Shown here piece by piece: positions 1,023 through 41,820 of a DNA stretch of 48,483 nt (the stretch's first letter is position 1; every line of letters starts with the position of its first letter). The stretch lies in assembly GCA_041743065.1 (NCBI GenBank), contig JBGTNO010000018.1:1-48483 (forward strand), in the 5' to 3' direction. The translations under genes were made by a program, and so were the position numbers. Below the pieces are notes generated by a model, which saw only the letters and a list, made by a program, of their open reading frames with translations, was not told where the DNA came from and did not search any database. The DNA is from Chthoniobacterales bacterium (GTDB lineage: Bacteria; Verrucomicrobiota; Verrucomicrobiia; Chthoniobacterales; Chthoniobacteraceae).

Positions 1023-1023
1023 A

Positions 1024-3830: not shown

Positions 3831-3832
3831 AA

Positions 3833-3923: not shown

Positions 3924-3936
3924 ATTTTCTCCGTAA

Positions 3937-4017: not shown

Positions 4018-4028
4018 TTTTCCTTTAC

Positions 4029-4104: not shown

Positions 4105-4111
4105 ATTTTCA

Positions 4112-4187: not shown

Positions 4188-4194
4188 ATTTGAA

Positions 4195-18867: not shown

Positions 18868-18868
18868 T

Positions 18869-19639: not shown

Positions 19640-19736
19640 GGCTGGGAAGGAAATCCTGGCGTCGAGCGAGAGCCGTCTCTTCGTCCTCATCGAACTCGCC
19701 CGACAGCGATTTCTTTGTCTATGATGCCCCGCCAAA

Positions 19737-21137
19737 ATGCTTCTGACAATCGCCACCACACACCAACCGGCAACGGATCTCGGGCATCTGCTGCGAAAGA
19801 ATCCAGCGCGGATGCAGAGCTTCCAGCTCAGTTTCGGCCAGGCCCACGTATTCTATCCGGAGGCAACGGAAGGGAGTTGCAAGGCTGCGCTGCTTCTGGA
19901 AATTGATCCGGTTGGGCTTGTTCGGGGGCGTCACGGACCAGCGGGGGAAGGCCGCTCGCTCGAGCATTACGTAAATGACCGTCCGTATGTGGCTTCATCA
20001 TTTCTGAGCGTCGCGATCGCCGAAGTCTTCGGGAGTGCGTTGTCGGGTAGAAGCAAAGAGCGTCCTGAACTGGTCAACTCGCCACTGCCGCTCGCGGCTT
20101 CTATCGCGGCTTTGCCTTGCCGGGGTGGCGAAGCGTTCCTGCGCCGGCTGTTCGAGCCGCTCGGCTACCGGTTAAGCGTTACAGGGCATCCGTTGGATGA
20201 AAATTTTCCAGACTGGGGCGAGAGCCCGTATTTCACAGTGACGCTCGACGCGACCCTGCCGCTGCGCGTGCTGCTCTCGCACCTTTACGTGCTCATTCCG
20301 GTGCTGGATAACGACAAGCACTACTGGGTCGGCGATGATGAGGTGGACAAACTTCTGCGCCATGGCGAAGGCTGGCACGGCACGCATCCAGAGCGCGACT
20401 TGATCACTCGCCGCTATCTCAAGCACCGGCGAAGTCTGGTTGACGACGTTCTGAGCCGACTGACTGAAGAGGACAACCCCGATCCCGATAGTGCCGAACA
20501 GATTCATTCGCAGGAAGAGGCGCAGTTCGAGGAGAAGATCAGTCTGAATGAACAGCGGCTCGGCGCGGTGCTCGCGGAGTTGAAACGCAGCGGCGCCAAA
20601 CGGGTGCTCGACCTCGGCTGCGGCGAGGGTCGGCTCGTGCGTGCGTTGCTCAAGGAAAAGCAGTTCGAGGAAATCGTCGGAATGGATGTTTCGTACCGCG
20701 CCCTCGAAATCGGTCGCGAACGGCTTGATCGCCTTCCGCCGATGCAGCAGAATCGCATCCGGCTAATTCACGGCTCACTGATCTATAGGGACATACGACT
20801 TGCTGGCTATGATGCGGCCGCCGTCGTGGAAGTGATCGAGCATCTCGATCCGCCACGGCTCGCGGCGTTCGAGCGCGTGCTATTCGAATGCGCGAAACCC
20901 GCGACGGTCGTTCTCACGACCCCCAACGCGGAATACAACGTGAAGTGGGAATCGCTGCCAGCAGGGAAGTTCCGGCACAAGGATCACCGGTTCGAGTGGA
21001 CGCGCGAGCAGTTTCAAGTTTGGGCGAAAGGCGTGGCCGGACGCTTTGGCTACACTGCCAAGTTTTTACCTGTCGGACCGGAAGACGCCACCGTCGGCGC
21101 GCCGACTCAAATGTCTGTGTTCGTGCGATCAGACTAA
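19737..21137 (+). CDS. hen1: RNA 3'-terminal 2'-O-methyltransferase Hen1 (bacterial type)
   Basis: N-terminal MLLTIATTHQPATDLGHLLRKNP...FGQAHVFYPE; C-terminal SAM methyltransferase VLDLGCGEGRL...VVEVIEHLD. Confidence 0.85.
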   Translation: MLLTIATTHQPATDLGHLLRKNPARMQSFQLSFGQAHVFYPEATEGSCKAALLLEIDPVGLVRGRHGPAGEGRSLEHYVNDRPYVASSFLSVAIAEVFGSALSGRSKERPELVNSPLPLAASIAALPCRGGEAFLRRLFEPLGYRLSVTGHPLDENFPDWGESPYFTVTLDATLPLRVLLSHLYVLIPVLDNDKHYWVGDDEVDKLLRHGEGWHGTHPERDLITRRYLKHRRSLVDDVLSRLTEEDNPDPDSAEQIHSQEEAQFEEKISLNEQRLGAVLAELKRSGAKRVLDLGCGEGRLVRALLKEKQFEEIVGMDVSYRALEIGRERLDRLPPMQQNRIRLIHGSLIYRDIRLAGYDAAAVVEVIEHLDPPRLAAFERVLFECAKPATVVLTTPNAEYNVKWESLPAGKFRHKDHRFEWTREQFQVWAKGVAGRFGYTAKFLPVGPEDATVGAPTQMSVFVRSD

Positions 21138-22756
21138 TGAATATCCGAAACGCAATTGTCAGGATGTGCTGGCCATGGCGGCACCGCGCCGCGAGCGGAG
21201 CGGTTGATCGTGCGGCGCAGGTCTCGACTATCAAACAGCTTGGCGAGGCCGGCACGCCTTCCAGTCTCTGGCATCTTCTCGAATACCTCTCGTCGTCAGA
21301 TTCATCGGTTAGAGAAGCCGCCGGATCTTCGATCGCGCAGCAACTCGATCTGGTGCCTCCTGCGCACCTATCGAAACTTGATGAGAGTCTCCGGGCAGCA
21401 ACTGCCTCGAACTGGAATCTGGACGGATGGCGGCGCCTTACGCCAGAGCAGGTAGGTGCTTTCGCCGACGATGCAAACGCATGGGCAATGCTGGGGGTGT
21501 CCAGCTTCCATCCGAATGGATATGTCCGGGAAAAATCGGTGCGCATTCTTGGCGCCATGCGCGACCGGAAGATTCTTGGTTTTCTACTCCTTCGGGTAAA
21601 CGACTGGGTGGCTCCCATCCGTTCGATGGCGCAGAGCGAGGTGCTCGCCCGCCTGACTCAGGAGAACTCCATGATGTGGATTCAGAATCTTCCGCTTGTA
21701 ACACGCCTGGAGTCATGCGGGCGTGGAATGCATGAGACAATCGTCGAAGCTGTGTATGGCCTTCTGGTAAACTCCGAGTGCCGAGATGCCTTGGTCAACG
21801 GTATCACTTCCGGTGACCGTGACATTCGCAGAGCCTGCTTTCGGGTGGTGGAAAGAATGCCCGAAATCCAAACGCGCCCTTTGCTTGAGGCTGCCATCGA
21901 AACTCAAGATCCCATTCTCCGCTTTCGCGCCTCGCAGCGCCTTCTCCGCCAAGTTCATATCGCGGATCTCGATCGGCTCTGCGAACGCTTTTTGAGCGAT
22001 CATTTCATGCCGGTTCGTCGCGCGGCGCTTGAGAGCGCGGTTGATCGAGGCTCAGGGAAGTTGGTGGCTTTTCTGCTCGAGGCGCTCGTTGATCGACATG
22101 CCAGCATTCGGGAACTGGCCCGCTTTCACCTGGTTCGGCGACACAATATTGACGTTCGGGCTGAGTATATTCAATTGCTCAAGACTTCTCGCGGCAAGAG
22201 ATTGGCGGCGACGATCCTCGGCTTGGGCGAGATCGGCGCCCAAGAGGATTTCGACTTAATCAAACCCTACCTGCAATCACACCCAGTTCAGGTGTGTATG
22301 GCAGCAACAGTGGCGGTCGGCCGCCTGGCTCCAACGGAAGCTCTCCCTTTTCTCTTGAAGGCTTTGCAAGGAGACAGCCCCGGCATCTCCCGGCAGGCAG
22401 AGCGGGCGCTTGCCCCCCAGGCGAACTCCGTTCCATACAAGGAACTGGTATCGATATTTCAAGGGAGTCCCAAGCCACACGTGCGAAGAAATACAATTCG
22501 GCTCCTTGTCAGGGGCACTAAATGGGAACGGCTCAGCCCACTCATCAGCGCCTGCGGCGATGATGATCCACAAGTTCGAGAGATTGCGAAGGCTGCTGTT
22601 GAGAAGTGGTTGTATCGATACAACGTCAGCTTCTTGCAGCCAACTCAGCGGCAGGTCGAGTCGGCACAATCAGCGATGGCTGTGGCCGGCGACCAATTGT
22701 CCGCAGCCGTTCGCCAGAACCTTACCACCCTGCTTTGTGATTGGGAGAAACGATGA
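21137..22756 (+). CDS. HEAT-repeat protein
   Basis: Start ATG overlaps the hen1 stop (TAATG). Repeated helical HEAT-like units (VREAAGSSIAQ, VRRAALESA, IRELARFHL, VQVCMAATVAVGRL, VREIAKAAV). Confidence 0.65.
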   Translation: MNIRNAIVRMCWPWRHRAASGAVDRAAQVSTIKQLGEAGTPSSLWHLLEYLSSSDSSVREAAGSSIAQQLDLVPPAHLSKLDESLRAATASNWNLDGWRRLTPEQVGAFADDANAWAMLGVSSFHPNGYVREKSVRILGAMRDRKILGFLLLRVNDWVAPIRSMAQSEVLARLTQENSMMWIQNLPLVTRLESCGRGMHETIVEAVYGLLVNSECRDALVNGITSGDRDIRRACFRVVERMPEIQTRPLLEAAIETQDPILRFRASQRLLRQVHIADLDRLCERFLSDHFMPVRRAALESAVDRGSGKLVAFLLEALVDRHASIRELARFHLVRRHNIDVRAEYIQLLKTSRGKRLAATILGLGEIGAQEDFDLIKPYLQSHPVQVCMAATVAVGRLAPTEALPFLLKALQGDSPGISRQAERALAPQANSVPYKELVSIFQGSPKPHVRRNTIRLLVRGTKWERLSPLISACGDDDPQVREIAKAAVEKWLYRYNVSFLQPTQRQVESAQSAMAVAGDQLSAAVRQNLTTLLCDWEKR

Positions 22757-25308
22757 AGATTACGATTCCAGAGCTAGCGTTTGTGGTTCTTATCGGTCCA
22801 TCCGGATCGGGGAAATCGACGTTTGCCCGCCGTCACTTCAAACCCACGGAAGTGTTGTCCTCGGATCATTGCCGAGGGCTCGTGTGCGATGACGAGAATG
22901 ATCAGGCGGCGACGCCGGATGCGTTTGCCGTTCTGAACTTCATCGCGTCGAAGCGACTCGCCAGCGCGAAGCTGACGGTCGTCGATGCCACAAACGTTCA
23001 GGAGGAATCCCGGAAGCCACTGGTTGCGCTGGCTCGGCAGTATCACTGCCTGCCCGTCGCCATCGTTTTCGATCTCCCGGAGAAGCTGTGTCACGAGAGG
23101 AATCAGAGCCGTCCCGACCGCACGTTTGGGTCGCATGTCGTGCGGCAGCAGACTCAGCAGATGCAGCGCTCACTCCGCAAGTTACAGCGGGAAGGTTTCC
23201 GCCATGTCTTCGTTCTCCGCACTCTTGAAGAAGTCGAGGAGGTCACGATCGAACGGCAGCCGCTGTGGAACAACAAGCGGGATGAGCACGGCCCGTTTGA
23301 CATCATTGGCGATGTGCACGGTTGTTTCGACGAACTTGCCGCACTCCTGGCAGAGCTGGGCTACGAGCCGCAACCGGGCGGAAGCTACGCGCATTCTGAA
23401 GGGCGAAAACTGATCTTCGTCGGTGATCTCGTCGATCGCGGGCCGAAGATTCCCGAGGTTGTACGGCTCGTTATGGAGTCGATCAAAGCCGGGCACGCGT
23501 TCTGTGTTCCAGGTAATCACGACATCAAATTCATGCGCGCGGTGTGGGGCAAGGACGTGCAGATCAAACACGGTCTCGCCGAGTCTCTGGAGCAGTTCAA
23601 GGCGTACGAAGAACATTATCGTGGATTCAGTCGGGTGGCAGCGGAGTTCATCGACTCCCTCGTGAGCCACTACGTTTTTGACGACGGGAGGCTGGTCGTC
23701 GCCCATGCCGGGATGAAAGAGGAGATGCAGGGGCGGGGGTCTGGCCGCGTTCGGGAGTTCGCGCTTTACGGAGAAACGACAGGTGAAAGCGATGAGTTCG
23801 GTCTGCCGGTGCGCTACAACTGGGCGGCAGATTATCGTGGCAAGGCGATGGTTGTTTACGGCCACACTCCGGTGCCCGAGCCCGAGTGGCTCAATCGAAC
23901 CATCAACATCGATACGGGCTGTATTTTTGGAGGAAAACTCACCGCGCTTCGCTATCCGGAGAAGGAAATGGTCTCCGTGCCCGCGGCGCACACCTACTGT
24001 GTGCCCGCGCGTCCTTTCCTTGAGGAAGGCATCGCGGCCCCGGTGTTGAGCGCGCAGCATCAGCTCGATGATCTGCTCGACATGGAGGACGTTCTGGGCA
24101 AGCGGATCATCTCCACCCGCTTGCGTCAGAACGTTACGATCCGCGAAGAGAACGCGATCGCAGCGCTGGAGGTGATGAGCCGATTTGCGGCGAATCCGAA
24201 ATGGCTGATCTACCTGCCGCCGACGATGTCTCCGACGGAGACGACGAAAGAGCCGGGCCTGCTCGAGCATCCCGCCGAGGCATTTGCCTACTATCGGCAC
24301 GAAGGCGTAGCTCGGGTGGTTTGCGAGCAAAAGCACATGGGCTCCCGTGCCGTTATCATCGTCTGCCGAAACAGCGAGGCGGCGCTCAAGCGTTTTGGTG
24401 TCGTGGACGAGTCCGGCATCATCTATACGCGGACCGGAAGGCGATTCTTTGACGATGCGGAGATCGAGGGTGCGCTCCTTTCGAAGATCCGCGCCGCACT
24501 CGACGCGGCGAATTTCTGGGAGGAGTTCACGACAGATTGGGTCTGTCTGGACTGCGAGCTGATGCCATGGTCGGCGAAGGCGCAGGAATTGTTGCGCCAG
24601 CAATACGCCGCTGTCGGCGCCGCTGCCCGCGCATCGCTTTCGTGTGCTATCGATGCGTTGGTGTCCGCCGAGGCGCGAAGACTGGATGTCACCGATATGC
24701 TCGGACGGTCGCGCGCAAGGGACGAGGCGGCAGGCAAATATGTGGACGCTTATCGACGCTACTGCTGGCCCGTCAACTCACTTGCCGATCTCAAAGTCGC
24801 CCCATTTCATCTGCTGGCCACTGAAGGCAAAGTCCACTCGGATCGCGACCACTTTTGGCACATGGCAGCGCTGGCGAAGATCTGCACCGCAGAGCCGGAA
24901 CTTCTCCTCGCGACCGCCCACATGACGGTCGATGTCACAAGCCCTGCCAGCCAGGACGAGGGCATCGCGTGGTGGACGGACATGACGAACGCCGGCGGCG
25001 AGGGAATGGTTGTCAAGCCTCTCGACTTCGTCGCGACCGGCCGCCGGGGCCTGATCCAACCGGCGGTCAAATGCCGGGGCCGGGAATACCTGCGAATCAT
25101 TTACGGCCCGGAATACACCGCGCCGGAGAATCTCGAACGCCTTCGTTCGCGCGGTCTCGGGAGGAAACGCTCGCTCGCTCTGCGAGAGTTCGCCCTCGGT
25201 CTGGAAGCTTTGGAGCGCTTTGTGACTCGTGAGCCGCTGCGTCGCGTCCATGAGTGCGTATTTGGAGTTCTCGCCCTCGAAAGCGAGCCGGTGGATCCTC
25301 GCCTATGA
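22753..25308 (+). CDS. pnkp: polynucleotide kinase-phosphatase/ligase Pnkp
   Basis: P-loop kinase GPSGSGKST; calcineurin-like phosphatase GDVHGC...GDLVDRGP...GNHD; C-terminal adenylyltransferase with the EQKHMGSR lysine motif. The start overlaps the HEAT gene stop (ATGA). Confidence 0.85.
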   Translation: MKITIPELAFVVLIGPSGSGKSTFARRHFKPTEVLSSDHCRGLVCDDENDQAATPDAFAVLNFIASKRLASAKLTVVDATNVQEESRKPLVALARQYHCLPVAIVFDLPEKLCHERNQSRPDRTFGSHVVRQQTQQMQRSLRKLQREGFRHVFVLRTLEEVEEVTIERQPLWNNKRDEHGPFDIIGDVHGCFDELAALLAELGYEPQPGGSYAHSEGRKLIFVGDLVDRGPKIPEVVRLVMESIKAGHAFCVPGNHDIKFMRAVWGKDVQIKHGLAESLEQFKAYEEHYRGFSRVAAEFIDSLVSHYVFDDGRLVVAHAGMKEEMQGRGSGRVREFALYGETTGESDEFGLPVRYNWAADYRGKAMVVYGHTPVPEPEWLNRTINIDTGCIFGGKLTALRYPEKEMVSVPAAHTYCVPARPFLEEGIAAPVLSAQHQLDDLLDMEDVLGKRIISTRLRQNVTIREENAIAALEVMSRFAANPKWLIYLPPTMSPTETTKEPGLLEHPAEAFAYYRHEGVARVVCEQKHMGSRAVIIVCRNSEAALKRFGVVDESGIIYTRTGRRFFDDAEIEGALLSKIRAALDAANFWEEFTTDWVCLDCELMPWSAKAQELLRQQYAAVGAAARASLSCAIDALVSAEARRLDVTDMLGRSRARDEAAGKYVDAYRRYCWPVNSLADLKVAPFHLLATEGKVHSDRDHFWHMAALAKICTAEPELLLATAHMTVDVTSPASQDEGIAWWTDMTNAGGEGMVVKPLDFVATGRRGLIQPAVKCRGREYLRIIYGPEYTAPENLERLRSRGLGRKRSLALREFALGLEALERFVTREPLRRVHECVFGVLALESEPVDPRL

Positions 25309-25382
25309 ATGCTGGCTGTTCGAATAGGGGTCCGAATGAGGAGTGAGTCCTATTATTCTTGCCTACGCCCCGCAGCACCATG

Positions 25383-25470
25383 CTGGCGGAGCGGCGGGGT
25401 TGCCTGGTCACCTGAAATGCTGCGGTCCGATGAGATCCGCTTGGATACGGGAAGCGCTGCTCGCTACTCA
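25383..25470 (+). repeat. direct repeat copy 1 (see 43767-43855)
   Basis: The first 34 nt (CTGGCGGAGCGGCGGGGTTGCCTGGTCACCTGAA) are identical to 43767-43800, followed by about 50 nt of roughly 80% similarity. Confidence 0.8.
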
Positions 25471-25483
25471 TGACGACTGCAGT

Positions 25484-25516
25484 AGAAAATAAAAAAGGAG
25501 CGTCGATCAGGCGTCC
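25484..25516 (-). terminator. intrinsic terminator of the helicase gene
   Basis: On the minus strand: hairpin GGACGCC...GGCGCTCC-like (25497-25516, one bulge), followed by TTTTTTATTTTC. Confidence 0.5.
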
Positions 25517-28500
25517 TTGTAGCCCTTGCGGAGTTTCTCCGCGGTGAGCTTTTCCACTTCGCGTCCAGCGCGTTCGACTGTGTCGAAAGTTTTGGTCTGC
25601 GTCTGACCTTGGGCACCGATGCGGCCGTAGCAGACGGTGACGTTCACGCCGTCGGAGGACACTTCCCAGAATTTGGAGGAACGACCCTCAATCAATTCGA
25701 GACGACGACGTCTCCCAGTCGCGCCAGCGACACTGGGAGGTAGAGTGCTGGTCGGGGCAAGCGGAATTGCAGTCGGCCCGGTATTTCCGGGCACGGGCGG
25801 CGGGAGGTCATAATCGAGTTCGACCGTTGGCTCCACCTCGCCGCGGATCAGCCGTTTGATCCGGTCGAGCACGGCTTGGGGCTCGTGATACCAGTCGCGC
25901 GTCAGGACCAGGGCGACTTGCCAGCCAAAGGCGCGAAGGATGCCAGGTTGCGTGACGGAGCGCTCGGCGACGTTTGGATTTGCGTAGTGCCCGGCGGTGT
26001 CCACGATGATTCCCAGACAGTAGTGCCGGGAGTCACCGGTGCGCACCGCGAGATCGCAGCGGAAGCGCGATTGGCCGACGTGCTCGTCCACGACGAAGCC
26101 AGCCGCACGCAATGCCTCTGCGAGTTGCAGACTGACGGCGTCCTTGCCGTTCGCCGGTGCAAGCTGCTTGCGCGTAAGCGGGTTCAGGCTTTCGAGAACA
26201 CCGCGCGCGAGTCGCAGTTCGCCGCGGGACGAGCACTCGGAGTAGTGGAGGAAGTTCTTCAGCGCCGCTGCGCCGTCGTTGTAGTCGTTTGTGATCGCGT
26301 GATGCCGGATGCTGCTGACCACTGCCCTGTGGTGACGTGCCCGGCTAAAGATCACGTTTAGCCGCTTCTCGCCCCCACGTTGGTTGATCGGCCCGAAGTT
26401 CATTAACATCCGCCCGTTCGGATCCGGCCCATAGCAGATGCTCAGCAGAATGATGTCGCGCTCATCGCCCTGCACGTTCTCCAGGTTCTTCACGAAGAGG
26501 CCGCAAAATTGATCATCCTCCTCACGCGCGTATTCCTCCTCTAGTCGGCCGCCAAACGCCGAGTCCTCCGCGGCCAGTGTTTCGAGGGCGGATTCTATCT
26601 CACCCTGCTGCGCTTCGCTGAACGCGACGATACCGATGCTGAGTTTGGTTTCGCGCCGGAGAAGCTCACGCACGAGCTGGGCGATGTAAGCCGCCTCGCC
26701 CCCATTGCGTCGGCCTTCGTATGGGCTGCGCTCCATGAAATGAAAACTGAGCGGTCGGCCGAGGAGCGACCCGCAATTGATCGAGGCGTCTGCTGGCGCC
26801 CGGACGAGGATCTCAGCTTGCTCCGGGGCCGGTAGAGTGAGGTCAGGAATCGTGTAGAGATTGCCGGCGTAAAAGGCAGCATTACTGAAGCTGATCAGCG
26901 ATTCCGAACGGCTGCGGTAGTGCCAGGCGAGCAAGGTGGCGGACAGATTTTTCGCGCTCTGGGTGAGGAAACTGTCGGCATCGAGCGAGACCGCGACGCG
27001 CTCACCGCCTTCCTCAACTTCGAGAGTATCGTCCTCCACGGCGCGGGCGGCGGAGAAGAAATTGGTCGGCGGGAGCTGCATCTCGTCGCCTACGACAATG
27101 ACCTGCGGTGCGCGATAAAGTGCCGGCACGGCTTCCTCAACGGGAATCTGGCTGGCCTCGTCGAAGATTACCACGTCGAACAAATCAGGTGCGAGCGGCA
27201 GCGTGTCGGAGACGCTAAGCGGACTCATCAACCAGATCGGCTTGAGGTCGCGCACCACCCGTCCTGTGTCCGCGGCGGCCAAATCGCGGATGGATTTGTA
27301 GCGCATCGTTTTCCCGAATTCGTGCTCCAGATCGCGTCGCCCCGCGCTGTAACTTTTTTGAAGAGCTTGCCAGCGGCATCGAGTTGCGTGGCGGAGAGCG
27401 TGGAGACCTGGACGTGCTCGCGGAATCGATGACGGACCTCGGCGCGAATAACCGCGGCGTTCTCCGCGAGCCATTCGCGTTCCGTGGTGCCGATGCGCTC
27501 GGCGCGATGCGCCACCACGCGACCGTCGAAACGTGGGAGCCAGCGTTCGGTCCGATAAACCTGGTCGAGACTGGTGCGTGCGATCGCCGCCTCCATTTGA
27601 TCCGGCGTGAGTGTAAAAGTGCGAAGCGCGTGCGCAAAGGCCGGCGGCGTCTCCGCGAGTTCTCCCAGGAGCGGCAGCAACTCCGGAAGCGCATCCGCTT
27701 CCTCGCGCAGATCGCGAACCGCTTCACCGATTCGCGCAAGATCTTGCCGCCGGAAATCGGCCAGCAGCGTGTCGAGCACGGAGATTAATTCCCCGAGCCG
27801 CGGCGCTAGAGCGTTCAGTCGCTCGACAACGCCCCTGCCTTCCTCGGACTCCAGCAGCAAGTTACGCAACGCCGTGAGCGCTGGCATCCCGAGGTCGGGC
27901 AATTGCAGCGGGGCGATGGACTCCAGCAATTTGACCGGTTCCACGCCATACTCGGCGAAGGCCGCCTGCCGGGATTCGTCGCGGGCGGCGATAGCGGCGT
28001 ATTCCCCTTCCAACTCGGTGAGCACCTGTGAGAGCGCGGGCCGGATGGCGTGCTTGGAAAAGTCGTAGCGCGTCTCGATAGCCTTTTTAAGCTGCCACCA
28101 CGACGGCTTCACGAACCGCAGCAGTGAATTCTCGTTTGCCCGCCCCTGCGCTATGGCTGCTGGTACGTCGCCGGACGGAAGCTTCTCGCGCCAATGCGCC
28201 GTTTTCGCCTGCGCGCGCTCGACGGCCTTGTCGTACTTGCCCAATTCCACCGCGGTTTTCTCCAACGCCCTGGTGAGCTTACTTTTCGACGCGAGCAGCT
28301 CGAGCTGATCGCGCCCGGCCAACTCCGCGACCTGAGTTGCAAAAGCAACCAGCGACTCGATTTCCTCCACTGTGTCCCAGTGCTCCTCGGGCAGCCCGCT
28401 GCTCCCGAGCGCCGATTCCACACCATCGAGCAAAGTCTCAGTGCGATCCGCAAGATCGTTGAGGGTTTCCAGTGGACGCTCGGCGCGGATCACGCCATCG

Positions 28501-30974
28501 CCCAGCCAGCGGAACGGATGCGCCGCCAGGGAAGTCGTATCGGCAACCTCCGTCAACGTCTTGGCGAGGCGACGTGCGATGTCGGCATGCGTGCGCCAGA
28601 CGCCGAAGTTTGGCAGATGCTCGGCGTCGCCGACGGAAAGTTGCGGCTCGTGCTCCCGCAGTTCGACGAGCCGGTGCAGTAACTCGCGCACGGGCCACGC
28701 CACATGTTCCGGAACGCTGCGCATTGCGGCGTCGAAGCGCCGGAGCGAGTCGAGATCGTGTTCCATTTGCCGGAGCAACGCGGTGCGCCGCTCACGCGCG
28801 GCTTCGGCATTATCGGGCTCGGCGAGCCACTTCTCGTAGGTCTGCTTGAGATTCAGGACGAACCCCTTTTTGTCAGTCTGCGAGTCGTGGATGAGGCAGC
28901 AGAGTTCATCGAGCCCTTGCTGGCGCAGGCGGTGGAAGACGACATCGATCGCTGCGCGCTTTTCGCAGACAAAGAGCACCCGTTTTCCGCGCGCCACGTA
29001 GTCGGCAATGAGATTGGTGATCGTCTGTGACTTCCCCGTGCCGGGCGGACCTTGAATGATGTAGCTGCGACCGGTGCGGGCCAGCGCAACCGCGGCGGAC
29101 TGGGTAGCGTCGCCAGGCACCACTGGCCACTCGTCAACCCGCGCGAGTGCGGCAGCGCCTTCGTCATCGAGAGGGCGCGGATCGAGCGAGAAGACGCGAT
29201 CAAACGCCTCGCTCGTCAGTTCGTCATCGAGCAGTGCGCCGTAGTCCCGCACGAGCGACATCTTCCGATAGTTGAAGTTACCAACAGTGAGTGAACAGAG
29301 GTCGAAGTCCCATGAGTAGGGATTGCCGGGTCGATCTTCACGCAAAGCAAACGTCTGCCGCTCCGTCTCCACGACGGGCTCGGAGGGCAGCACAGGCGCG
29401 ACCATGTGGGGCAGACGCGCTTCCGACAGTCCACCCGCCGCGGCCCGCTGCGGCAGCGGCGCCGGCAGCACCTTTTCCCGGAAGAGCTGGAGGCCGAGCG
29501 GCCGGAAGTTCTCGCGATCGTAGCTGTAGCTGAAGCTTGCTTTGGTGCGCTTCGCCGGTGCGCGGAGCTTTTGTTTGCGCTGGAACTGAGCGAGCCGCTG
29601 GCGGGCCCGCTCGTGAATAAGTTGGATCTCGGGCTTGTCCACGAGCCGGAGCGTGACACCAGGTTCACTCGCGCGAATTTGCGCTTTGAGTTCACTATGA
29701 AATTGCTCCAGGGGCGTCTCGCGCAGATCAATGGATTCGGGCAGGCGCAGTCCGTAGAGCTGATGCAGATGATGACGCAGCGCGGGATTCACCTCTGCCT
29801 CGCTCGACGTGGGATCGAGCAGGTATTGATCGCGTACGCCCTTCTTCTTTGACAGCTCGACTGGGAGCAGCAGGAGCGGCGAGACGATGCGTTCCTGCGG
29901 CGTCTCCTTGAGGTTGTGCCAATGCAGGAACGCAATCACGAGCCGGAGCTGTGCGAAGCCATACTCGGCGCGGTCGCGGCGCGCGTCGGAGATCAGCTTG
30001 TCGAGCGCGCTGGGCAGATACGGCTGGTCCTCGAAGCGCAGCCACCGTCCGAGACTCATGGCTTTTCCGTCAATGACTTCTGCCGCCAACGCCGGATGCC
30101 AGACAAAGAGCTGCTCCAGCCGCACGCTCGCCAGATTCATAACCATCGGCACGCTTGCCACGGTGAAGTTGAGCGACGCCTGCGAGGGTTTGAAATATAG
30201 CAGCCGATTGCGGCGGGTGATTTCAAACAGCCGGTCGCGCAGATGAGTCTGCACCAGTTTGCGCCGCCCATTTAGGCCGGCCTCGGCAAAGCCGGGCAAC
30301 TTCGCCACGTCGATGTCGGGCATCTGCTCCCGGTAGTTTTCCAATCGGCGAATGAGCGACGGCAGGTCTGGCGCTCGACGATGGCGGTTAAGCTCCGTCA
30401 TTTCGACGATGACGGAGGCAAGCACCGGATGGAGCCGCGCGTTCACGCCGAATAGATTGGCTCGATGCGAAACGAATATGCTGAGGTCGTCCGCATCCGT
30501 AAAATCGAGACCGAGCGCAATGCTGGCGAGAATCTGGCCAAGCGCGAAGATGTCCGTGAACGCGTCGTGATGACCGACCAGTTCCTCCCACGTCCGATAC
30601 CCGGTGATGTAGGCAGGATGCTTCATCTCCACCTCGCCATCCGTGACCTCGAGATCGGTGTATTCTATGCCAGCTTCATCGTCGGAGGTCACGCGGGCGT
30701 GGCCAATCACGTTGAGCGCGCTGGCGACCGGTTTTTGAAGCTCGTCGATGCGCGCGAGGTTTGCGGCCGGCGCGATGGCGGTGCCATCGCAACGCAACGC
30801 TCCAGGCTCATCGACCGCAAGGGTCGCGAGGCCATGCAACGGAGCAACGAGCGACTGCTCGTGCCAGGCGGCCACCTGCCGGAAAAGTGGCAGCACCGCG
30901 GCCAGCACGTCGTCGGTCTGGAAGCCCACGCCCTCGCCGCGCTGCAGGAGTTGAAGAAACGGGGTGACGCTCAT
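25507..30974 (-). CDS. giant Upf1/DNA2-like SF1 helicase with REase-like and WGR domains, frameshifted
   Basis: Walker A IIQGPPGTGKSQT; VIFDEASQ; VVGDEMQLPP; NVQGDERDIIL; REase-like RFRCDLAV...IIVDT; C-terminal WGR (FWEV...CYGRIGAQG). The two ORFs (27228-30974 and 25507-27474) join if the A6 run (T6 at 27352-27357) is A7. Confidence 0.75.
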
Positions 30975-32239
30975 GCCTTGGCCTCCGCTTTCGCCAGCAT
31001 GGCCGTTGCTCCCTTCTTGAGCTTGTTGAACTGTCGCTTCCCGATCCCGAGTTCCTTGAGCGCCACCTTTTCAAACTGCTCCGCGATCTCCAAGCGCTCG
31101 CTCCAGTCCAGCGCGGCTGCGAGCGGAACATCCTCCAGGTCCCGGTCGATCACCGCAAAATCAAGCAGTAAGTAGCAGAGGTAATCGCGCATCGCCGCAT
31201 CGACGGTGCGCAGTTCGGTGGCGAGAGATTCATCGGGCGTGGACGCCGCCGCGAAGTCTGGAAAGAACGCCCGCGCGTGAGCGAGCACCGGGGGGCTTTG
31301 AAACCATTTCGGTCGGAGCACCTCGCCAAGAAATCGGCGCGTAAGCTTTGCCATGCGCTGCTGGCCGGCGAGATCGAGATCATCGAGGCCGAGTGGCCCT
31401 TCGATGGTGGCAGTGAGCCAAGCGTCGAGGTTGGCGTCGTTTTCTGCCCAAAGCCGCAACGCCCGCGCTCGAATAAACGTCTCGGGATGCTCCAACCCCT
31501 TGGTGGTGGCGTCTTCACGTGAGAAAATCTCGTCGGCCTGTCGCAGGTAACTCGCAGCGCTCACCTCCGGCAGCCCGGTTTCCGTTTTCACCAGCGCCGC
31601 GACCGTCGCCTCCAACTGGCCGCAGCCAACGAACGATCCGCGATCGGCAAACACCTCCGTGTAGAGGCGAAAGCGCCGCGCCGTCTGCGCATGGCTCGCC
31701 GCTGCACGCGGATCATTAGCCGCTGCCATGAGCAGGCGATCCGCGACCAAAAAATCACCGCCTTCCATTTCCCAAAGGCGAAAGTGCGCCAATTCATGGG
31801 CGAGCACCGCATCCAGCTCCGCGCCTTTCAACGTTGCGAGAATCGGCCCTGTGAAAACGATGTGCGCTTCGCCAGGAAGATGGCAAAGCATTGCGTTCAG
31901 TCCGAATCCCCCGCTCGCCTGATAAAGCGTCACCGGAGCCGTCACGCCCAACCGCTCTGCGACTACAACACAACGCTCGGCCAGGTCCGGATGCGCGTCC
32001 GCATCCAGCCGATAGTTCGCCTTCAACAACCCGGTGCGCATCTCGCCGGCAAATTCTCCGCGCACTTTCGCCGAAGATCCCCACTGCCACAGCTCCGGCT
32101 CGGTTGATTTCAGATAGGCCACGACCTCCCGCTGATAAGGAAGAGGGATAAGCCGGATCGGTACTGGTGGATCAACATTGGTCACGGAGCGCAGATTAAC
32201 TATCAGGGGAATCCGCTCTTTGGAAGCTGCCCATCGCAT
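30971..32239 (-). CDS. M48-like zinc metallopeptidase (soluble)
   Basis: HELAH motif in LAHELAHFRLWEMEG. The stop overlaps the helicase start (ATGA). Confidence 0.6.
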   Translation of the reverse strand: MRWAASKERIPLIVNLRSVTNVDPPVPIRLIPLPYQREVVAYLKSTEPELWQWGSSAKVRGEFAGEMRTGLLKANYRLDADAHPDLAERCVVVAERLGVTAPVTLYQASGGFGLNAMLCHLPGEAHIVFTGPILATLKGAELDAVLAHELAHFRLWEMEGGDFLVADRLLMAAANDPRAAASHAQTARRFRLYTEVFADRGSFVGCGQLEATVAALVKTETGLPEVSAASYLRQADEIFSREDATTKGLEHPETFIRARALRLWAENDANLDAWLTATIEGPLGLDDLDLAGQQRMAKLTRRFLGEVLRPKWFQSPPVLAHARAFFPDFAAASTPDESLATELRTVDAAMRDYLCYLLLDFAVIDRDLEDVPLAAALDWSERLEIAEQFEKVALKELGIGKRQFNKLKKGATAMLAKAEAKA

Positions 32240-32325
32240 CCGCGGGTCGCTTTATCGACTCTAGCTCGGCGATTTGTTGGAGAGTAGGACTGACATTTGC
32301 AGGCTGAAGCCGCAATCTGCCGACC

Positions 32326-32622
32326 ATGTGGCTCTTCACCAAGCGCGGTTTCTACAGCATCGTTCAGAAGAAGAAGGGCGAGTTCCACATCCGCGCCCGG
32401 GTGAAGCCCGACCTCGGGAATCTGAAGGATCTTGCCGGAATCAAAGAGAAGATCGTCACAACACGGGATGCGGATTACCGCTACCGCCTGGTGGTCGGAC
32501 CCGAGGAGATCGGCTGGGTCATGGAGCGCCTGGGGCAGGACATCGATTACGCGAACTTCAAATCCAAGGTCGCCTCGGATCCCGAACAACGAGACAAGCT
32601 CGGCGCCTATCATGAGATTTGA
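32326..32622 (+). CDS. hypothetical small protein
   Basis: 98-aa ORF with lysine-rich, coding-like composition; no recognisable motif. Confidence 0.45.
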   Translation: MWLFTKRGFYSIVQKKKGEFHIRARVKPDLGNLKDLAGIKEKIVTTRDADYRYRLVVGPEEIGWVMERLGQDIDYANFKSKVASDPEQRDKLGAYHEI

Positions 32623-32869
32623 GGCGCAATGTACGGGGTGCAGCGAAGAGCGGAGGCGAGTTGAGGAGTAGAACTCAGGTTCAGCCGCGGCGTGAACGCG
32701 AAAAGATCGAAGCTCGGCCTCCCAAAAATCTGGACGACGACATCCCCGGCACGGGCGGTGCCGGAGAAGAGGCGCGATGGGTAGCTTCCTGGGAACGAAA
32801 ATCACAAAGTATCGACTGGTGCCAACACTTTCTGTCGGGTGCCTGCCGCCATAAGGTCGGGCCTGAGAG

Positions 32870-33758
32870 ATGACGCTGATTGCTATACGGTGGATACGAA
32901 GCCTCCTGGCTGTCGCGGCTTTGTGTTTTCTCGGAGGAATCGGATTCATGCTCTACGTAGGTCATCAGCTTGTTGCGCCAGTGCCCCGGGTCATCGGCCC
33001 TCCCCCCACCTACTTGGGCGGAGAGACCGTCCGGTTCCAAAGCGAGACTGGGAGTCAGGTCGCGGGTTGGCTCACGGAGAGAGAGGGCGCCTCTTGGCGC
33101 GATTCTCCTTTTGCATGCGATCCGGGCTGACCGGCGGAGCATGGCGGACCGAGCCAGGTTTCTACGTGATCAGGGCTACCACACACTCTGCATCGATCTC
33201 CAAGCCCATGGAGAGAGCGCAGGTGAGCACATCACGCTGGGGCATCTTGAGTCGATGGATGCGGCGGCCGGAGTGGCGTATCTGCGGGGTCGCTATTCGC
33301 TGCCAGTAGCCGTCATCGGGACCTCGCTTGGAGCAGCCGCGGCTCTCATGGCCGACTACGATCGGCCACCTGAGGCAATGGTCGTGGAAGCTGTGTTTGC
33401 CGATGCCGAAACGGCTGTCGGCAATCGACTCGAAATGCGTTTCGGTCGCTATGGACGCCTCTTATCACCCATGCTCACGTGGCAGATCAGATTGTTCCTG
33501 GGCATCGACGAAGACAGGTTGAATACCGTTCGAGCTGCGGAGAAGGTCGATCAGCCGATCTTTGTCCTCTATGGCAGCGAGGATCGGCACGCCCGGCCCG
33601 TCGAGGCCAAGGCCATATACGCGGGTGTCAGAGGGCCGAAAAAGATTTGGGAGGTCTTGGGTGCCGCCCACGTCGATCTCTATCGATTCGCTGGCGAAGA
33701 TTACGAGAAGCGCGTGGGCGAGTTTATCGCCACCTACCTCCGACCCGGATATGAATGA
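32870..33758 (+). CDS. alpha/beta hydrolase, reading frame interrupted
   Basis: TM helix plus ...VAGWLTEREGA in one frame. GAILLLHAIRADR...GHGESAG...IGTSLGAAAA (nucleophile elbow)...GSEDRH...AAH in another. Frames join near 33075-33095. Confidence 0.65.
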
Positions 33759-33882
33759 CGAGTCTTCCATTCTGTCGCTCGCCCCACCCATAATTCCATC
33801 CGTCATGATCGCTCCAACCTCAACCCTCATTCAATGCCTCGCTTACGCTCAGGCGTAAGTTGACTCGACGTTCGGCAAAAAA

Positions 33883-34449
33883 ATGAGCCATCACCGCAAA
33901 CTTTGGAGTATCTTGGCAGCGTTCATCGTTGGGGCGCTCGTCTCGTGTGATCCTCCATCTTCGGCGGAACCCGAGACAAATGAACAGGCTGGTTCGACAC
34001 CCGATCTTGAGCAGATCGCGAAACTCCAAGGCGATGTCACGTTCACCTTGGAAAATGGTGAAGATCTAAACCGTGAACACCCGGACACGTTCTGGATTCC
34101 TCCGAAAGAGCGTCGGGAGAATCTCGTCAAAGATGATCTGGTGAAACTGGTCTTCAGCTTAACCGATGGAGAACAGACACAGGGAGAACGGATGTGGGTC
34201 ATCGTGAAAAGTGGTGATGAATCAGCTTATACAGGGACTCTCGACAACGACCCCTACTCTACGGACCAGATTAAGGCAGGGCACGAGGTCTCATTCGAGC
34301 CGCGGCACGTGATTGAAATATTCGAGGACGGGAGCGCGAATACCCAAAATGCCGAACTAAACGGCGCTGACCAACTCGCCGACTCTCCTGAGTCGAGGTC
34401 GGAGGCCGGTCAAGACCGGGATCTCCCATCGGAGGGCCGCCCCCAATAG
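33883..34449 (+). CDS. DUF2314-like lipoprotein
   Basis: Signal/lipobox-like N-terminus (...GALVSC); FWIPPKERRENL...GERMWVIV...YTGTLDNDPY. Confidence 0.55.
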   Translation: MSHHRKLWSILAAFIVGALVSCDPPSSAEPETNEQAGSTPDLEQIAKLQGDVTFTLENGEDLNREHPDTFWIPPKERRENLVKDDLVKLVFSLTDGEQTQGERMWVIVKSGDESAYTGTLDNDPYSTDQIKAGHEVSFEPRHVIEIFEDGSANTQNAELNGADQLADSPESRSEAGQDRDLPSEGRPQ

Positions 34450-34501
34450 CGAACGGCAGTTCTCGGACATTGGCAATGACTCATGACACGAGGGACTATC
34501 C

Positions 34502-35215
34502 ATGATGCACGAGGCATCACGAGTCTGTAGACTTGACCGCGCATGGCTCGCCTTTCTGGTGGTTTCAGGCGGCTTGTTGAGCGCGTGTCTTGCAGCAACC
34601 GTTTTCGACGCGACCGTCTTCCTTTCTGGCATTCTTTGCGTCGGTCTAATGGCGATTGGTCGACGTGAAGGGTATCTCATTGGACTCTACAACAGTCTCT
34701 CCTATTCCATCCTGGCCTACGGCAACGGACTCTACGGAGAAGTCTATCTCAATCTCCTTTTCTTTGTCCCAACCAGCCTCATCGGTTACGTAATATGGTA
34801 TCGGCACACGAGACAGGACAGAACAGTGGAGATGAGGCAGCTTGGCTGGCCGGCTCGGTTCACAGTCGCAGCCATCTGCATTGCCTGCACAGTGGGACTT
34901 GGGCTTCTTCTGGGTCTGAATCCTCGCCAGAACACGCCTTTCATTGACGCAACCACCAACGTACTTTCCGTGGTGGCTACTTTCCTGATGATGTGGCGCT
35001 ACAAGGAGCAGTGGCTGCTTTACATTCTGCTCAACATCGTCACGATCGGAATGTGGTTCCTTCGCTTCAGAGCCGGGGGAGCGGCGGCAGACTTGATGAT
35101 TCTGATGTGGTCTCTGTTTCTCTTGAACGCTCTGTTTGGGTATTGGCGGTGGCACGTGGGAACGAAGAGAGTAGGTGTAACGAACACTGAGGCGGGGACA
35201 TGCAACGTGGTTTAA
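34502..35215 (+). CDS. pnuC: nicotinamide riboside transporter PnuC
   Basis: Multi-TM protein with PnuC-like motifs (GREGYLIGL...YGEVYLN...W.RH...QNTPFIDATT...WRYKEQW). Confidence 0.75.
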   Translation: MMHEASRVCRLDRAWLAFLVVSGGLLSACLAATVFDATVFLSGILCVGLMAIGRREGYLIGLYNSLSYSILAYGNGLYGEVYLNLLFFVPTSLIGYVIWYRHTRQDRTVEMRQLGWPARFTVAAICIACTVGLGLLLGLNPRQNTPFIDATTNVLSVVATFLMMWRYKEQWLLYILLNIVTIGMWFLRFRAGGAAADLMILMWSLFLLNALFGYWRWHVGTKRVGVTNTEAGTCNVV

Positions 35216-36258
35216 CCCTGGGCAAGTTCGCCCCTTTCCATCGGGGGCACCAGATGCTTATAGAAGCCGCGCTGTCCGAGGTGGATGAGTTGGTCGTCAT
35301 AGTCTATGCCACGGACCTGATCGATGTGCCTCTCCAGGTCCGCGCCGGGTGGATACAAGAGCTGTACCCGACGGTCCGAGTAATTGAGGCATGGGACGGT
35401 CCGGACGGTTACGGTGACACCCCGGAGATCTGTCGCGAGCAGGAAACCTACATTCTCAAGAAGCTCAACGGGCTTCGCATCACTCATTTCTACTCCAGTG
35501 AATTTTACGGTGACCATGTCAGCCGGTCTCTGGGTGCGGTAGACCGGAGGATCGACGAGGCACGCACGGTCGTTCCAATCAGTGGGACGGCTCTCCGCGA
35601 GGACTACTTTGCCGGGCGACAATACATTGCCCCGATGGTGTACGCTGACCTGATTACCAAAGTCTGCTTCATGGGCGCGCCCTCGACTGGCAAGACAACC
35701 CTCACCCAAACCCTGGCCGAGCAGCACAGTACGGTGTGGATGCCAGAATACGGCGCGGAGTACTGGCTTGAGCACCATGTTGACCGGCGAATCACGCTGG
35801 AACAGTTTGAGGAAATCGCGCCAGAGCACAACAGCAGGGAGGATGCGCTGGTGCGAGAGTCCCGCCGGTATCTCTTTTGTGATACGAACCCGATCACAAC
35901 GTACGTTTTTGCCAAGGACTACCATGGCCGGGTCGGGCCGGTTTTGACCCGCTTGGCAATAGAGGCAGAAAAGCGATACGACTTGCTCTTCGTGTGCGGC
36001 ACCGAAATCCCTTACGCCGACACATGGGATCGTAGTGGAGATCAGAAGAGGAAGTGGTTTCAGGACCAAATCTTCGGTGATCTGGCGGAAAGGCGGTTGC
36101 CTTTCTTCAGAGTCAGCGGAACACTGGAGGAACGAGTATCGCAGGTGGACGAAGTCCTTCGACAGCACCGGAAGTTCGGCAATGTGCTTGATATTCAGAA
36201 AGCGACCGAGCTTCGCGGCCGTGAAGCGGGCGTGAGCGTCCCGCCGAGCGCCTCTTGA
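35200..36258 (+). CDS. nadR: NadR-type NMN adenylyltransferase / ribosylnicotinamide kinase
   Basis: GKFAPFHRGHQ (HxGH) in the N-terminal domain; P-loop GAPSTGKTT in the C-terminal domain. Overlaps the pnuC end. Confidence 0.75.
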   Translation: MQRGLTLGKFAPFHRGHQMLIEAALSEVDELVVIVYATDLIDVPLQVRAGWIQELYPTVRVIEAWDGPDGYGDTPEICREQETYILKKLNGLRITHFYSSEFYGDHVSRSLGAVDRRIDEARTVVPISGTALREDYFAGRQYIAPMVYADLITKVCFMGAPSTGKTTLTQTLAEQHSTVWMPEYGAEYWLEHHVDRRITLEQFEEIAPEHNSREDALVRESRRYLFCDTNPITTYVFAKDYHGRVGPVLTRLAIEAEKRYDLLFVCGTEIPYADTWDRSGDQKRKWFQDQIFGDLAERRLPFFRVSGTLEERVSQVDEVLRQHRKFGNVLDIQKATELRGREAGVSVPPSAS

Positions 36259-36477
36259 CGTGCGAAGGGGGGTAGCCTCTTCCAGACACACCATAGTCCG
36301 GGGAGCGATAAAACTGCATCAATGATTCCGGCGTAAGAGAGTCCTGGTGCTGCCGTCCACCGGCGTTGAATTGAAGGGACTGGCGCTCACGCGCCATCGA
36401 TGTTGTGATCCAGGGCCAGCAGCCGCTGCGAGAGGCTGCTGCAAACGGATTTCGCCCTAATCTTGCTTTTCCCGACG

Positions 36478-37737
36478 ATGAAAAATTACGACACGCCAAT
36501 CATCGAGAGCCTGGCAGACCAGGATCTCTACAAGTTCACCATGGCGCAGGCGGCCCTGCATCACTGTCCCAGTTTGCAGGTCGAGTTCGCTTATCGATGT
36601 CGCACGCCGGGGATCGATCTGCGCCATCTGGCCGACGAAATTCGCGAGCAGGTGAGGCATGTGGCGACGCTGCAATTCACTCCGGATGAGATGGAATTTC
36701 TCAGCCATCTCACCTACGTCTCGTCCGATTTCATCGATTTCCTCCGGATATTCCGGCTCAACGCCGATGCGGTTCAGATTGGCGAACGAAATGGATCTCT
36801 CGACATACGGATCACGGGCTCCCAGGTCCACGTATCGTGGTGGGAAATTTACCTCCTCTCGATCATCAGCGAACTGCACGCCCGCCGGGCGTATCCGAAC
36901 ATCGACGAAAACGAAGGACATCGCCGGCTAACGGAAAAGATTTGCGCGGCAAAGGACTGGCAGAGCGTCCAGGGTTCGGATGGAAGGAAGTTCCGCCTGA
37001 TTGAATTTGGCACTCGCCGTCGTTACTCCCGAGCATGGCAGGAGAAGGTTCTCGACCGGCTCCGCACGGACCTGGCCGAATGCCTGGTGGGCACCTCCAA
37101 CGTTAAACTCGCGAAAGACTACGGTCTCCCAGCCTTCGGAACCTTCGCGCACGAATGGTTCCAGATCTGGCAGGCGACCGATGTCCGCCTGATCGAGAGC
37201 CAGAGGCGGGCGATGGACGTGTGGGCTCGTGAGTTCCGCGGCCAGCTCGGGATTGCCCTCACCGACATCATCACGATGGACGCTTTCCTCCGCGACTTCG
37301 ACCTCTACTTCGCGAAACTCTTCGACGGGTGCCGCCACGATTCCGGCGATCCCCGGGGTTGGACCGAGAAACTGATCGCACATTATCGGCGGCTCAATAT
37401 CGATCCCCGTTTGAAATGGGCCGTCTTTTCCGACGGCCTGAACATTCCGAAAGCACTCGCTTTGTGCGAAGAGTTCGAGGGTCAGATCATGACCAGCTTC
37501 GGCATCGGGACCGACCTCACGAACGACCTCGGCGTACCAGCGTTGAGTCAGGTGATCAAGATGACCAGGTGCAACGGCCAGCCGACGGCGAAAATTTCAG
37601 ACGCGCCGGGAAAGAGCATGTGCGAGGACGCCGGATACGTGGCGTATTTAAAGCAGGTCTTCGACGTTCGAGAAAGCGAGCCGCTCCCGTCAGCACCGAT
37701 GAAGGAAGTGGGTTCCGCCAAACGCGGCGGCCTCTGA
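36478..37737 (+). CDS. pncB: nicotinate phosphoribosyltransferase
   Basis: IIESLADQDLYKFTMAQA...EFGTRRR...GTFAHEW...RHDSGDP...FGIGT. The ATG at 36478 is preferred over the upstream TTG. Confidence 0.8.
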   Translation: MKNYDTPIIESLADQDLYKFTMAQAALHHCPSLQVEFAYRCRTPGIDLRHLADEIREQVRHVATLQFTPDEMEFLSHLTYVSSDFIDFLRIFRLNADAVQIGERNGSLDIRITGSQVHVSWWEIYLLSIISELHARRAYPNIDENEGHRRLTEKICAAKDWQSVQGSDGRKFRLIEFGTRRRYSRAWQEKVLDRLRTDLAECLVGTSNVKLAKDYGLPAFGTFAHEWFQIWQATDVRLIESQRRAMDVWAREFRGQLGIALTDIITMDAFLRDFDLYFAKLFDGCRHDSGDPRGWTEKLIAHYRRLNIDPRLKWAVFSDGLNIPKALALCEEFEGQIMTSFGIGTDLTNDLGVPALSQVIKMTRCNGQPTAKISDAPGKSMCEDAGYVAYLKQVFDVRESEPLPSAPMKEVGSAKRGGL

Positions 37738-37748
37738 AACTCCCTGCT

Positions 37749-38675: not shown

Positions 38676-38884
38676 AATGCGGCCACATCCGATCGGGGCT
38701 GACGAGAGCCGCTTTAGGATGCAACCCCGTTATGGCAGGGGCCCGTGTTGATGGAAGATCCAGAGCGGCGCGCCGCTTTTTCCGAGGATGTATCCCGTGG
38801 GGGATTGGCGGCAGTCTGGCTTTCCACTGCATGCCGATAGGAGCCTGAATCAGATGAACTCACAATCTAGGAAAAGCTGCTTGA

Positions 38885-38907
38885 CTTAGTGTTTGTTAAA
38901 CACTAAG
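38885..38907. promoter_or_regulatory. perfect palindromic operator upstream of pncA (candidate NrtR site)
   Basis: CTTAGTGTTT-GTT-AAACACTAAG, 10-bp perfect arms. It lies between a TTGACT box (38881-38886) and the pncA start. Confidence 0.5.
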
Positions 38908-38921
38908 TATTCTCCCGAACC

Positions 38922-39569: not shown

Positions 39570-39596
39570 CGATCTGGGATTGAAGGTCTGTTTCAA

Positions 39597-39965: not shown

Positions 39966-39971
39966 CCAACC

Positions 39972-41758: not shown

Positions 41759-41820
41759 CCACCACAAACGATTCATCGCACTAGAGCAATCAGTCGCCCA
41801 CAGCCTCAAGACCAATAGCC

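Follow-up and report, generated by a model that had tools for sequence, protein, structure and literature searches.

Analysis of a 48,483-nt stretch of DNA from a Chthoniobacterales bacterium (contig JBGTNO010000018.1, hereafter the window) identified a conserved two-gene module on the minus strand, which consists of an M48-like zinc peptidase and a helicase-nuclease of about 1820 amino acids (aa) belonging to the ProA/Hhe superfamily. The likeliest role of this module is defence against phage or invading DNA, a reading to which we give an even chance; it is homology that suggests such an anti-phage function. The clade to which the module belongs is marked by the upstream M48-like peptidase, by an N-terminal helicase domain that resembles the C-lobe of a kinase and, usually, by a C-terminal WGR domain. 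This pairing is undescribed: it was not found as a named system in the literature searched, and no PADLOC model matches the peptidase. This agrees with the initial annotation, made from the sequence of the window alone, which had not recognised the pairing as a named system.

Conservation and architecture of the peptidase-helicase pair

A search seeded with the peptidase covered one genome per species (185,579 species) and returned 298 relatives, of which the best 80 loci were kept. The helicase follows directly downstream in 77 of these, in a consistent frame in 76 cases and with many frame breaks in L008. The remaining three are L079, which ends at a contig edge, L071, which retains a 176-aa N-terminal fragment of the helicase, and L007, in which the peptidase is followed by a PurM-like gene and the helicase is missing; the genome containing L007 is the sole other carrier among the 41 genomes nearest to that of the window. 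Where at least 5.7 kb of downstream DNA was available (65 loci), the helicase is an intact single open reading frame (ORF) in 60 cases; four copies are broken, all of them in metagenome-assembled genomes (MAGs) with names that mark long-read data. The initial annotation had named a lack of conservation of the pair elsewhere as a finding that would refute it. As the pair is strongly conserved, this objection falls away.

A second set of loci was obtained from metagenomes with a C-terminal alignment of the helicase (587 relatives, best 80 loci kept). It splits into Group 1 with 36 loci (54-76% identity in domain 2A) and Group 2 with 44 loci (37-43%). The peptidase gene is present in 22 of the 23 Group 1 loci with enough upstream DNA (at least 3.7 kb), always together with the kinase-like domain of the helicase; the one remaining locus, L110, holds only a truncated remnant. 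In the ProA/Hhe-like Group 2, all 44 loci lack the peptidase and the kinase-like domain as well as the WGR domain and the helicase insertion in its present version. The pairing is far beyond chance, and the peptidase is strictly co-inherited with the kinase-like domain. Pairwise identities of peptidases and helicases are correlated with r = 0.967 (62 loci), a value reached in 0 of 999 permutations; since linked genes share their history, this shows co-inheritance without swapping of partners and not a physical contact. No third conserved gene was found at the pair; the genes around it differ between loci in family, length and orientation. In a single metagenome locus (L118, 6710-10918), the helicase is divided between the strands, its C-terminal third lying on that of the peptidase and the other two thirds on the opposite one, which reflects either an inversion or a misassembly.

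In the window, the peptidase ORF comes first and the helicase ORFs follow head to tail (Table 1). The predicted overlap of the peptidase stop with the helicase start in an ATGA was confirmed, and a GGAGG is located 9 nt upstream of the helicase ATG. The exact 4-nt overlap of the peptidase stop with the first in-frame ATG of the helicase recurs in 37 of the 80 related loci. Judged by this arrangement, the two genes are translationally coupled. The real start of the peptidase is probably a GTG near position 32185, because homologues start 20-30 residues later than the listed ORF.

The peptidase is predicted to be a soluble, M48-like enzyme, as had been proposed. The Pfam model M48 (PF01435) scores 23.1 bits compared to a gathering score of 20.3, yet the match spans only 42 residues around the HELAH motif. 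The HExxH motif is found in 63 of 63 peptidases, and the motifs HExxH, TE..ADRG and HPE..RARA are invariant across 25 homologues. An AlphaFold model with a predicted local distance difference test score (pLDDT) of 89.7 shows a zincin core flanked by a helical region on the N-terminal side and a helical domain on the C-terminal side. By fold, it comes closest to BepA (6sar) and Ste24, and BlaR1 was also found; all of these matches are weak (E at least 2e-3). A profile search against PDB sequences yielded HtpX with E 0.0036. No hydrophobic segment is present in the peptidase, the maximum 19-residue hydropathy being 1.22. The enzyme has the HExxH motif, the downstream Glu and the HPxxxxR-type motif in common with the M48 peptidases HtpX, BepA/YfgC and Ste24. 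Unlike these, it is predicted to be soluble, lacks membrane or periplasmic signals, has its own helical domains at both termini and forms a separate family. At E ≤ 1e-30, 432 clusters out of 1.84 billion representatives belong to this family, and almost all of them are unfused proteins of about 400 residues. The public records annotate the two protein families only as "M48 family metalloprotease" and "WGR domain-containing protein". In L016, from a Chthoniobacteraceae MAG, a second and different M48 peptidase (Pfam E 9e-12; 8484-9806, minus strand) lies divergently just upstream of the pair.

The helicase had been described as a combination of an N-terminal region of about 600 residues with unclear fold, a superfamily 1 (SF1) core, a nuclease module resembling restriction endonucleases (REase) and a terminal WGR domain. 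All parts were recovered with Pfam as DUF4011, AAA_11, AAA_12, REase_MTES_1575 and WGR; the N-terminal region is present as stated, but can be divided into a kinase-C-lobe-like domain (residues 2-218) and, behind it, DUF4011. Residues 1-560 were modelled with AlphaFold on the basis of 35 homologues; the mean pLDDT of this model is 72.5 and reaches 87-94 in the best blocks of the lobe. When this model was compared to 48,161 chains by means of VIA-align, the 50 best matches were all kinases (Z 12.1-14.1; root mean square deviation 3.0-4.3 Å). The matches cover 145-166 residues and superimpose residues 2-218 of the model on the part of kinases from the hinge to the C-terminus, for example residues 96-281 of PknB. 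Foldseek found PknB, PKR, IRAK4 and AMPK, and a sequence profile of the domain matched kinases only among PDB sequences (E 0.07-0.8). Only the C-lobe was matched; an N-lobe with Gly-loop and Lys is missing, and the alignment of the domain contains no conserved HRD, DFG or catalytic Lys, the position of the catalytic loop reading VAPL. On these grounds, the N-terminal residues up to about 220 are modelled as a dead kinase C-lobe.

The motor is interrupted by an insertion of roughly 500 residues ahead of Walker B; the distance from Walker A (residue ~640) to Walker B (residue ~1271) is given as about 570 residues. The PADLOC model PDC-S37 and the NCBIfam model ProA align across the region of Walker A and the insertion. 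The second helicase ORF contains the end of AAA_11 with Walker B, AAA_12, REase_MTES_1575 and WGR, in the same order as in intact relatives. GPPGTGKS is found in 63 of 63 helicases; DEASQ, GDxxQLPP, QGDERD and RLNVxFSR, which represent Walker B and motifs III, V and VI, occur in all 62 relatives and in the second ORF of the window, and the columns of Walker B, motif III and domain 2A are invariant in an alignment of 36 sequences. In the nuclease, both acidic residues common to ProA/Hhe-like relatives are retained, within the motifs FRCDLAV and GIIVDT. The underlying pattern is F[KR]xD[IL]A plus GI[LIV]xD, the first half of which is missing in an Opitutaceae subclade (6 of the 62 relatives). 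By motif, the catalytic residues of both enzymes are conserved. The WGR domain scores 59.9 bits, well above the Pfam gathering score of 22, and is present in 51 of 60 intact helicase copies and absent from nine; the match to the WGR domain of PARP3 is weak. WGR is a break-binding module in PARPs. As in PARP1-3 and in bacterial WGR proteins (PDB 2ra8), it is clearly recognisable, here at the extreme C-terminus; compared to PARP1-3, the PARP catalytic domain is lacking and WGR caps a helicase-nuclease instead.

Table 1. Positions of the peptidase-helicase pair and its parts in the window
Feature	Position	Strand	Remarks
M48-like zinc metallopeptidase gene	30971..32239	-	422-aa ORF; HELAH at residues 148-152
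ATGA stop/start overlap	30971..30974	-	Sequence GCATGAGCG; peptidase TGA over helicase ATG
Helicase, first ORF	27228-30974	-	1248 aa
Helicase, second ORF	25507-27474	-	655 aa; 247-nt overlap with first ORF
Kinase C-lobe-like N-terminal domain, catalytic motifs absent	30315..30974	-	Residues ~1-220; fold comparison
DUF4011 domain	29766..30233	-	Residues 248-403; Pfam PF13195, E 2.7e-15
Start of SF1 helicase domain 1A, then long insertion before Walker B	27357..29111	-	AAA_11; GPPGTGKS, residues ~622-696
A6 run at the frame break	27354..27359	-	One-base deletion relative to inferred A7
Walker B DEASQ, motif III GDEMQLPP, domain 2A (AAA_12; QGDERD, RLNVIFSRAR)	26311..27183	-	Pfam and motifs
REase_MTES_1575 nuclease domain (Vsr/DUF559-like)	25852..26127	-	Pfam, E 2.4e-14
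C-terminal WGR domain	25513..25704	-	Pfam PF05406, 59.9 bits; PDB 2ra8, E 4.3e-9

A search of positions 24000-42000 with Rfam yielded no family, and a promoter scan of 25000-33200 no sigma-70-like site. The latter region contains 13 terminator-like sites compared to 7.7 +/- 3.0 in shuffled sequences, which is uninformative. Two small ORFs next to the pair (32203-32949, 248 aa; 25097-25471, 124 aa) were taken as spurious, because they have no Pfam match and no relative in the 80 loci and are rich in Arg and Pro.

The frame break in the helicase gene of the window

The initial annotation had treated the helicase as one protein of about 1,800 residues. This length agrees with that of the relatives, in which the helicase is a single ORF of 1826-1850 aa, but the window itself contains two ORFs separated by a frameshift. 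The frame breaks at a run of six A, and one added A would restore a protein of about 1822 aa. Two relatives, from a Chthoniobacter MAG (L004, 1850 aa) and from Chthoniobacter flavus Ellin428 (L006, 1826 aa), read through the position of the break in one frame (...FKKSYSAGRRDLEHEF). Both pieces of the window helicase align end to end with relatives at 74-91% identity, and no other stop or shift was seen. Of the genuine pseudogene with further disruptions that had been considered, one frameshift was thus found and no second defect.

The A6 run was compared in the assembled contigs of two sequencing runs of one study, X1 and X2 (X1 is possibly the source of the window; X3-X6, which contain small shares of the stretch, were left out). 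The contigs were assembled separately at a depth of about 5-6 and show an identical A6 and no differences, while leaving room for a minority of A7. As the same A6 was obtained from both runs, the shift is reproducible, and it is probably real. The local helicase is probably inactive, a recent pseudogene beside an intact peptidase.

It is unlikely that the break is an assembly error in the homopolymer, or that slippage of the ribosome or of RNA polymerase makes it harmless by yielding a full-length protein. The position in an A-run, the lack of a second defect across 5.4 kb and the low depth are compatible with such an explanation, and the four relatives with broken helicases, being MAGs with long-read names, indicate that such assembly errors occur. 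On the other hand, an indel variant was found in neither of the two separately assembled runs, and relatives contain A5 or A2 at the position of the break, so that a slippery site is not conserved. A run of six A is, moreover, short for transcriptional slippage. The heptamer is out of the X_XXY_YYZ register for -1 frameshifting; with this wrong register and a site that is not conserved in relatives, a programmed -1 frameshift was rejected as unlikely.

Function, distribution and genomic neighbourhood

If the module acts in defence, the SF1 motor would load onto an abnormal nucleic-acid structure, with motor and nuclease acting as in ProA and Hhe. By analogy with the WGR domains of PARPs, the WGR tail may recognise nicks or ends, and the Vsr-like nuclease would cut. 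The peptidase would act on or together with the kinase-like N-terminal domain, as an obligate regulator or a co-effector. There is a faint hint that, among activating, restraining or complementing the helicase, the peptidase restrains it or is required for it, because the peptidase persists without a working helicase in the window, in L007 and in L071, and the reverse was not seen.

Carriers of the module are rare: two were counted among 41 close relatives and four among 401 genomes that sample the phylum. Such an accessory distribution, seen also in the 298 hits among 185,579 species, counts in favour of the defence reading. Most carriers are Verrucomicrobiota; separate clades exist in Burkholderiales and in Planctomycetota, the latter joined by a single Myxococcota and a single Lentisphaerota. 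In the phylogenetic tree, the Chthoniobacter clade of the window adjoins Melainabacteria and Burkholderiales and not the other Verrucomicrobiota (support 98), which suggests some transfer of the module and is likewise in line with defence.

A number of observations weigh against a role in defence. The contact between peptidase and helicase is putative, and the local helicase is disrupted. The peptidase tree mostly follows taxonomy, with 8 label changes compared to a minimum of 6. Among the 124 nearest neighbours in 31 loci, three matched a PADLOC defence model (E ≤ 1e-5), and the 80 neighbours that were scanned with Pfam are mostly metabolic or housekeeping genes. Viral contigs searched for the peptidase gave 15 pattern matches, none of which is a relative. 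Finally, intact relatives of the helicase score far below the cut-offs of the ProA and Hhe models, so that the function may have diverged. The defence role that had been suggested for the pair receives no support from its genomic context.

Such a context would suit genome maintenance, in which the helicase-nuclease would process broken or blocked DNA with the help of WGR and the peptidase would clear proteins stuck to DNA. In eukaryotic repair of DNA-protein crosslinks, SprT/Wss1-type proteases act together with helicases. Besides the binding of breaks by WGR in PARPs, this proposal is in line with neighbours that are mostly of the housekeeping type, with the absence of defence islands and with a largely vertical inheritance within phyla. 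Genes of the repair type are found nearby, namely Pnkp and Hen1 in the window and HAD_SAK_2 in L065, and in three loci from Variovorax (L054, L072, L078) the pair is adjoined by genes for DnaE-type polymerases. Many annotations of peptidase homologues list SprT-like (PF10263) beside M48; in the window, however, the SprT-like match of 20.6 bits is weak and below the gathering score of 25.6, and the fold matches M48, which places the peptidase outside the SprT-like/Wss1 proteases. Moreover, four carriers in 401 genomes of the phylum make for a distribution that is very sparse and patchy for a repair function. The module is also easily lost or broken, as in the window, L007 and L071, and the nearest characterised relatives are anti-phage proteins. 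We therefore regard genome maintenance as rather unlikely, if worth keeping in mind.

Alternatively, the peptidase may serve as a safety partner, resembling an antitoxin or a maturase, for a potentially self-damaging helicase-nuclease, which it would restrain or process and which could then not be maintained in its absence. Its gene precedes that of the helicase and is coupled to it in translation through the overlap, and it is co-inherited with the extra N-terminal domain. No intact helicase of the clade was seen without it (22 of 23, the exception being the truncated remnant), and it is retained where the helicase no longer works: in the window, where the frame is shifted, in L007, which has lost the helicase, and in L071, where a 176-aa fragment is left. 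This asymmetry is not statistically meaningful, because it is based on few cases and on sets that were seeded differently, and a cleavage site or a complex is putative only. A safety partner, which we hold to be an unlikely explanation by itself, is also compatible with the defence reading and not opposed to it.

A more specific version of the defence reading, which we consider quite improbable, sees in the module a protease-armed branch of Prometheus/Hhe. In this branch, the dead kinase C-lobe would be a docking or decoy platform, WGR would direct the protein to breaks or perhaps to nucleic acid marked with ADP-ribose, and proteolysis of a DNA-bound or phage protein would be coupled to the attack by the helicase-nuclease. 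ADP-ribosylglycohydrolase or Macro genes are found no more than 10 kb away from the pair in 8 of 115 related loci, in four of which they adjoin it; as there is no background rate, these counts do not imply enrichment.

The ADP-ribosylglycohydrolase gene occurs in seven of these loci (L012, L021, L037, L038, L040, L051, L055) and adjoins the pair directly in L012 (with Macro), L021, L037 and L051. Macro genes are found in L012, L020 and L040, and a SIR2 gene follows the pair in L046. In the window, an ADP-ribosylglycohydrolase gene (40658-41758, plus strand) is the last of a run of NAD-salvage and ADP-ribose genes (34502-41758, plus strand). This run encodes a PnuC-like transporter, a NadR-like AAA_28/cytidylyltransferase protein, a member of the NAPRTase family, a Prs-like protein, a nicotinamidase-like isochorismatase, NrtR (Nudix plus winged helix) and the ADP-ribosylglycohydrolase; the ORFs of NAPRTase and Prs overlap by about 400 nt as listed, one start codon being uncertain.

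On the other side of the pair lies an RNA-repair cluster (19737-25308, plus strand), in which a HEAT-repeat protein is inserted between the usual partners Hen1 and Pnkp; the Pnkp stop at 25308 is convergent with the helicase stop at 25507. Upstream of Hen1, positions 16382-19759 of the minus strand encode three proteins: one of 485 aa that matches no Pfam family, one with ankyrin repeats and one with DUF2071. L027 also has a DUF2071 gene (51% identical), at a distance of about 2 kb on the downstream side of the pair. Twelve tRNA genes are clustered in less than 4 kb of the window (378-4188, plus strand).

Comparison with Mokosh, Hhe and Prometheus

The initial annotation had pointed to Mokosh as an anti-phage system with a similar helicase-nuclease fusion. 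Mokosh combines an RNA helicase with a PLD-family nuclease. The matches of the helicase to MkoA (E 7.5e-14 and 3e-20 on the two ORFs) and MkoC are confined to the SF1 core, which is all that MkoA/MkoB and MkoC have in common with it. The best PADLOC model is PDC-S37, with E 5e-68 for the first and 4e-131 for the C-terminal ORF, followed at a distance by Hhe (PDLC02194) with 2e-21 and 2e-68; PDC-S37, ProA and Hhe also cover the nuclease domain. Furthermore, Pfam detected no PLD domain in the window helicase or in intact relatives. Membership in Mokosh is extremely unlikely and was rejected; the nearest systems are Prometheus/ProA (PDC-S37) and Hhe.

Hhe is reportedly due to Gao et al. 2020. Its protein, HheA, shares DUF4011, the helicase and the Vsr-like nuclease, and its C-terminal half aligns with the window helicase. 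Compared to the module described here, Hhe is a single-gene system without peptidase, kinase-like domain or WGR. The NCBIfam model of Hhe (NF042953) scores 455.8 and 468.7 bits on the intact relatives L004 and L006, far below its cut-off of 2000 bits. PDC-S37, which we treat as the PADLOC counterpart of Prometheus/ProA and in which the "S" presumably denotes a single gene, leaves its first ~220 and last ~210 positions unmatched by the window helicase.

According to the passages on Prometheus in PMC13700489, ProA is the single protein of this system and combines DUF4011, a DNA2-like part with a characteristic insertion and a DUF3320 at the C-terminus; they also report that its defence activity was established experimentally in Pseudomonas aeruginosa (van den Berg et al. 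2024, Cell Host Microbe 32:1427). Further passages on Prometheus were drawn from PMC13078230. The window helicase has the giant architecture of DUF4011, DNA2/Upf1-type SF1 motor with long insertion and Vsr-like REase in common with ProA. The NCBIfam model "anti-phage protein ProA" (NF058533) is the best match in that collection, ahead of Hhe, and scores 665.3 and 673.4 bits on intact L004 and L006, aligning residues ~603-1721 of 1850, and 442.6, 173.4 and 50.9 bits on the pieces of the window helicase; its equivalog cut-off is 1500 bits. The N-terminal 600 residues or so match the ProA model weakly, over a DUF4011 stretch of about 100 residues, and the kinase C-lobe-like N-terminus of the clade is not found in ProA. 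At the C-terminus, DUF3320 is replaced by WGR, or by nothing in 9 of 60 relatives, and in contrast to the single-protein system a peptidase partner is encoded upstream. With motor, insertion and nuclease in common with these proteins, but with different ends and a partner, the helicase is best classified, on sequence grounds, as a cousin of ProA and Hhe and not as a member of either.

Prometheus and Hhe are described as defences of one protein each, and little is understood of what triggers and controls them. In the sister clade described here, a dedicated peptidase, a dead kinase lobe and usually WGR provide natural add-on parts, which point to how giant helicase-nucleases may be targeted and restrained. 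Chthoniobacter flavus Ellin428 is a cultured and harmless carrier in which the pair is intact.

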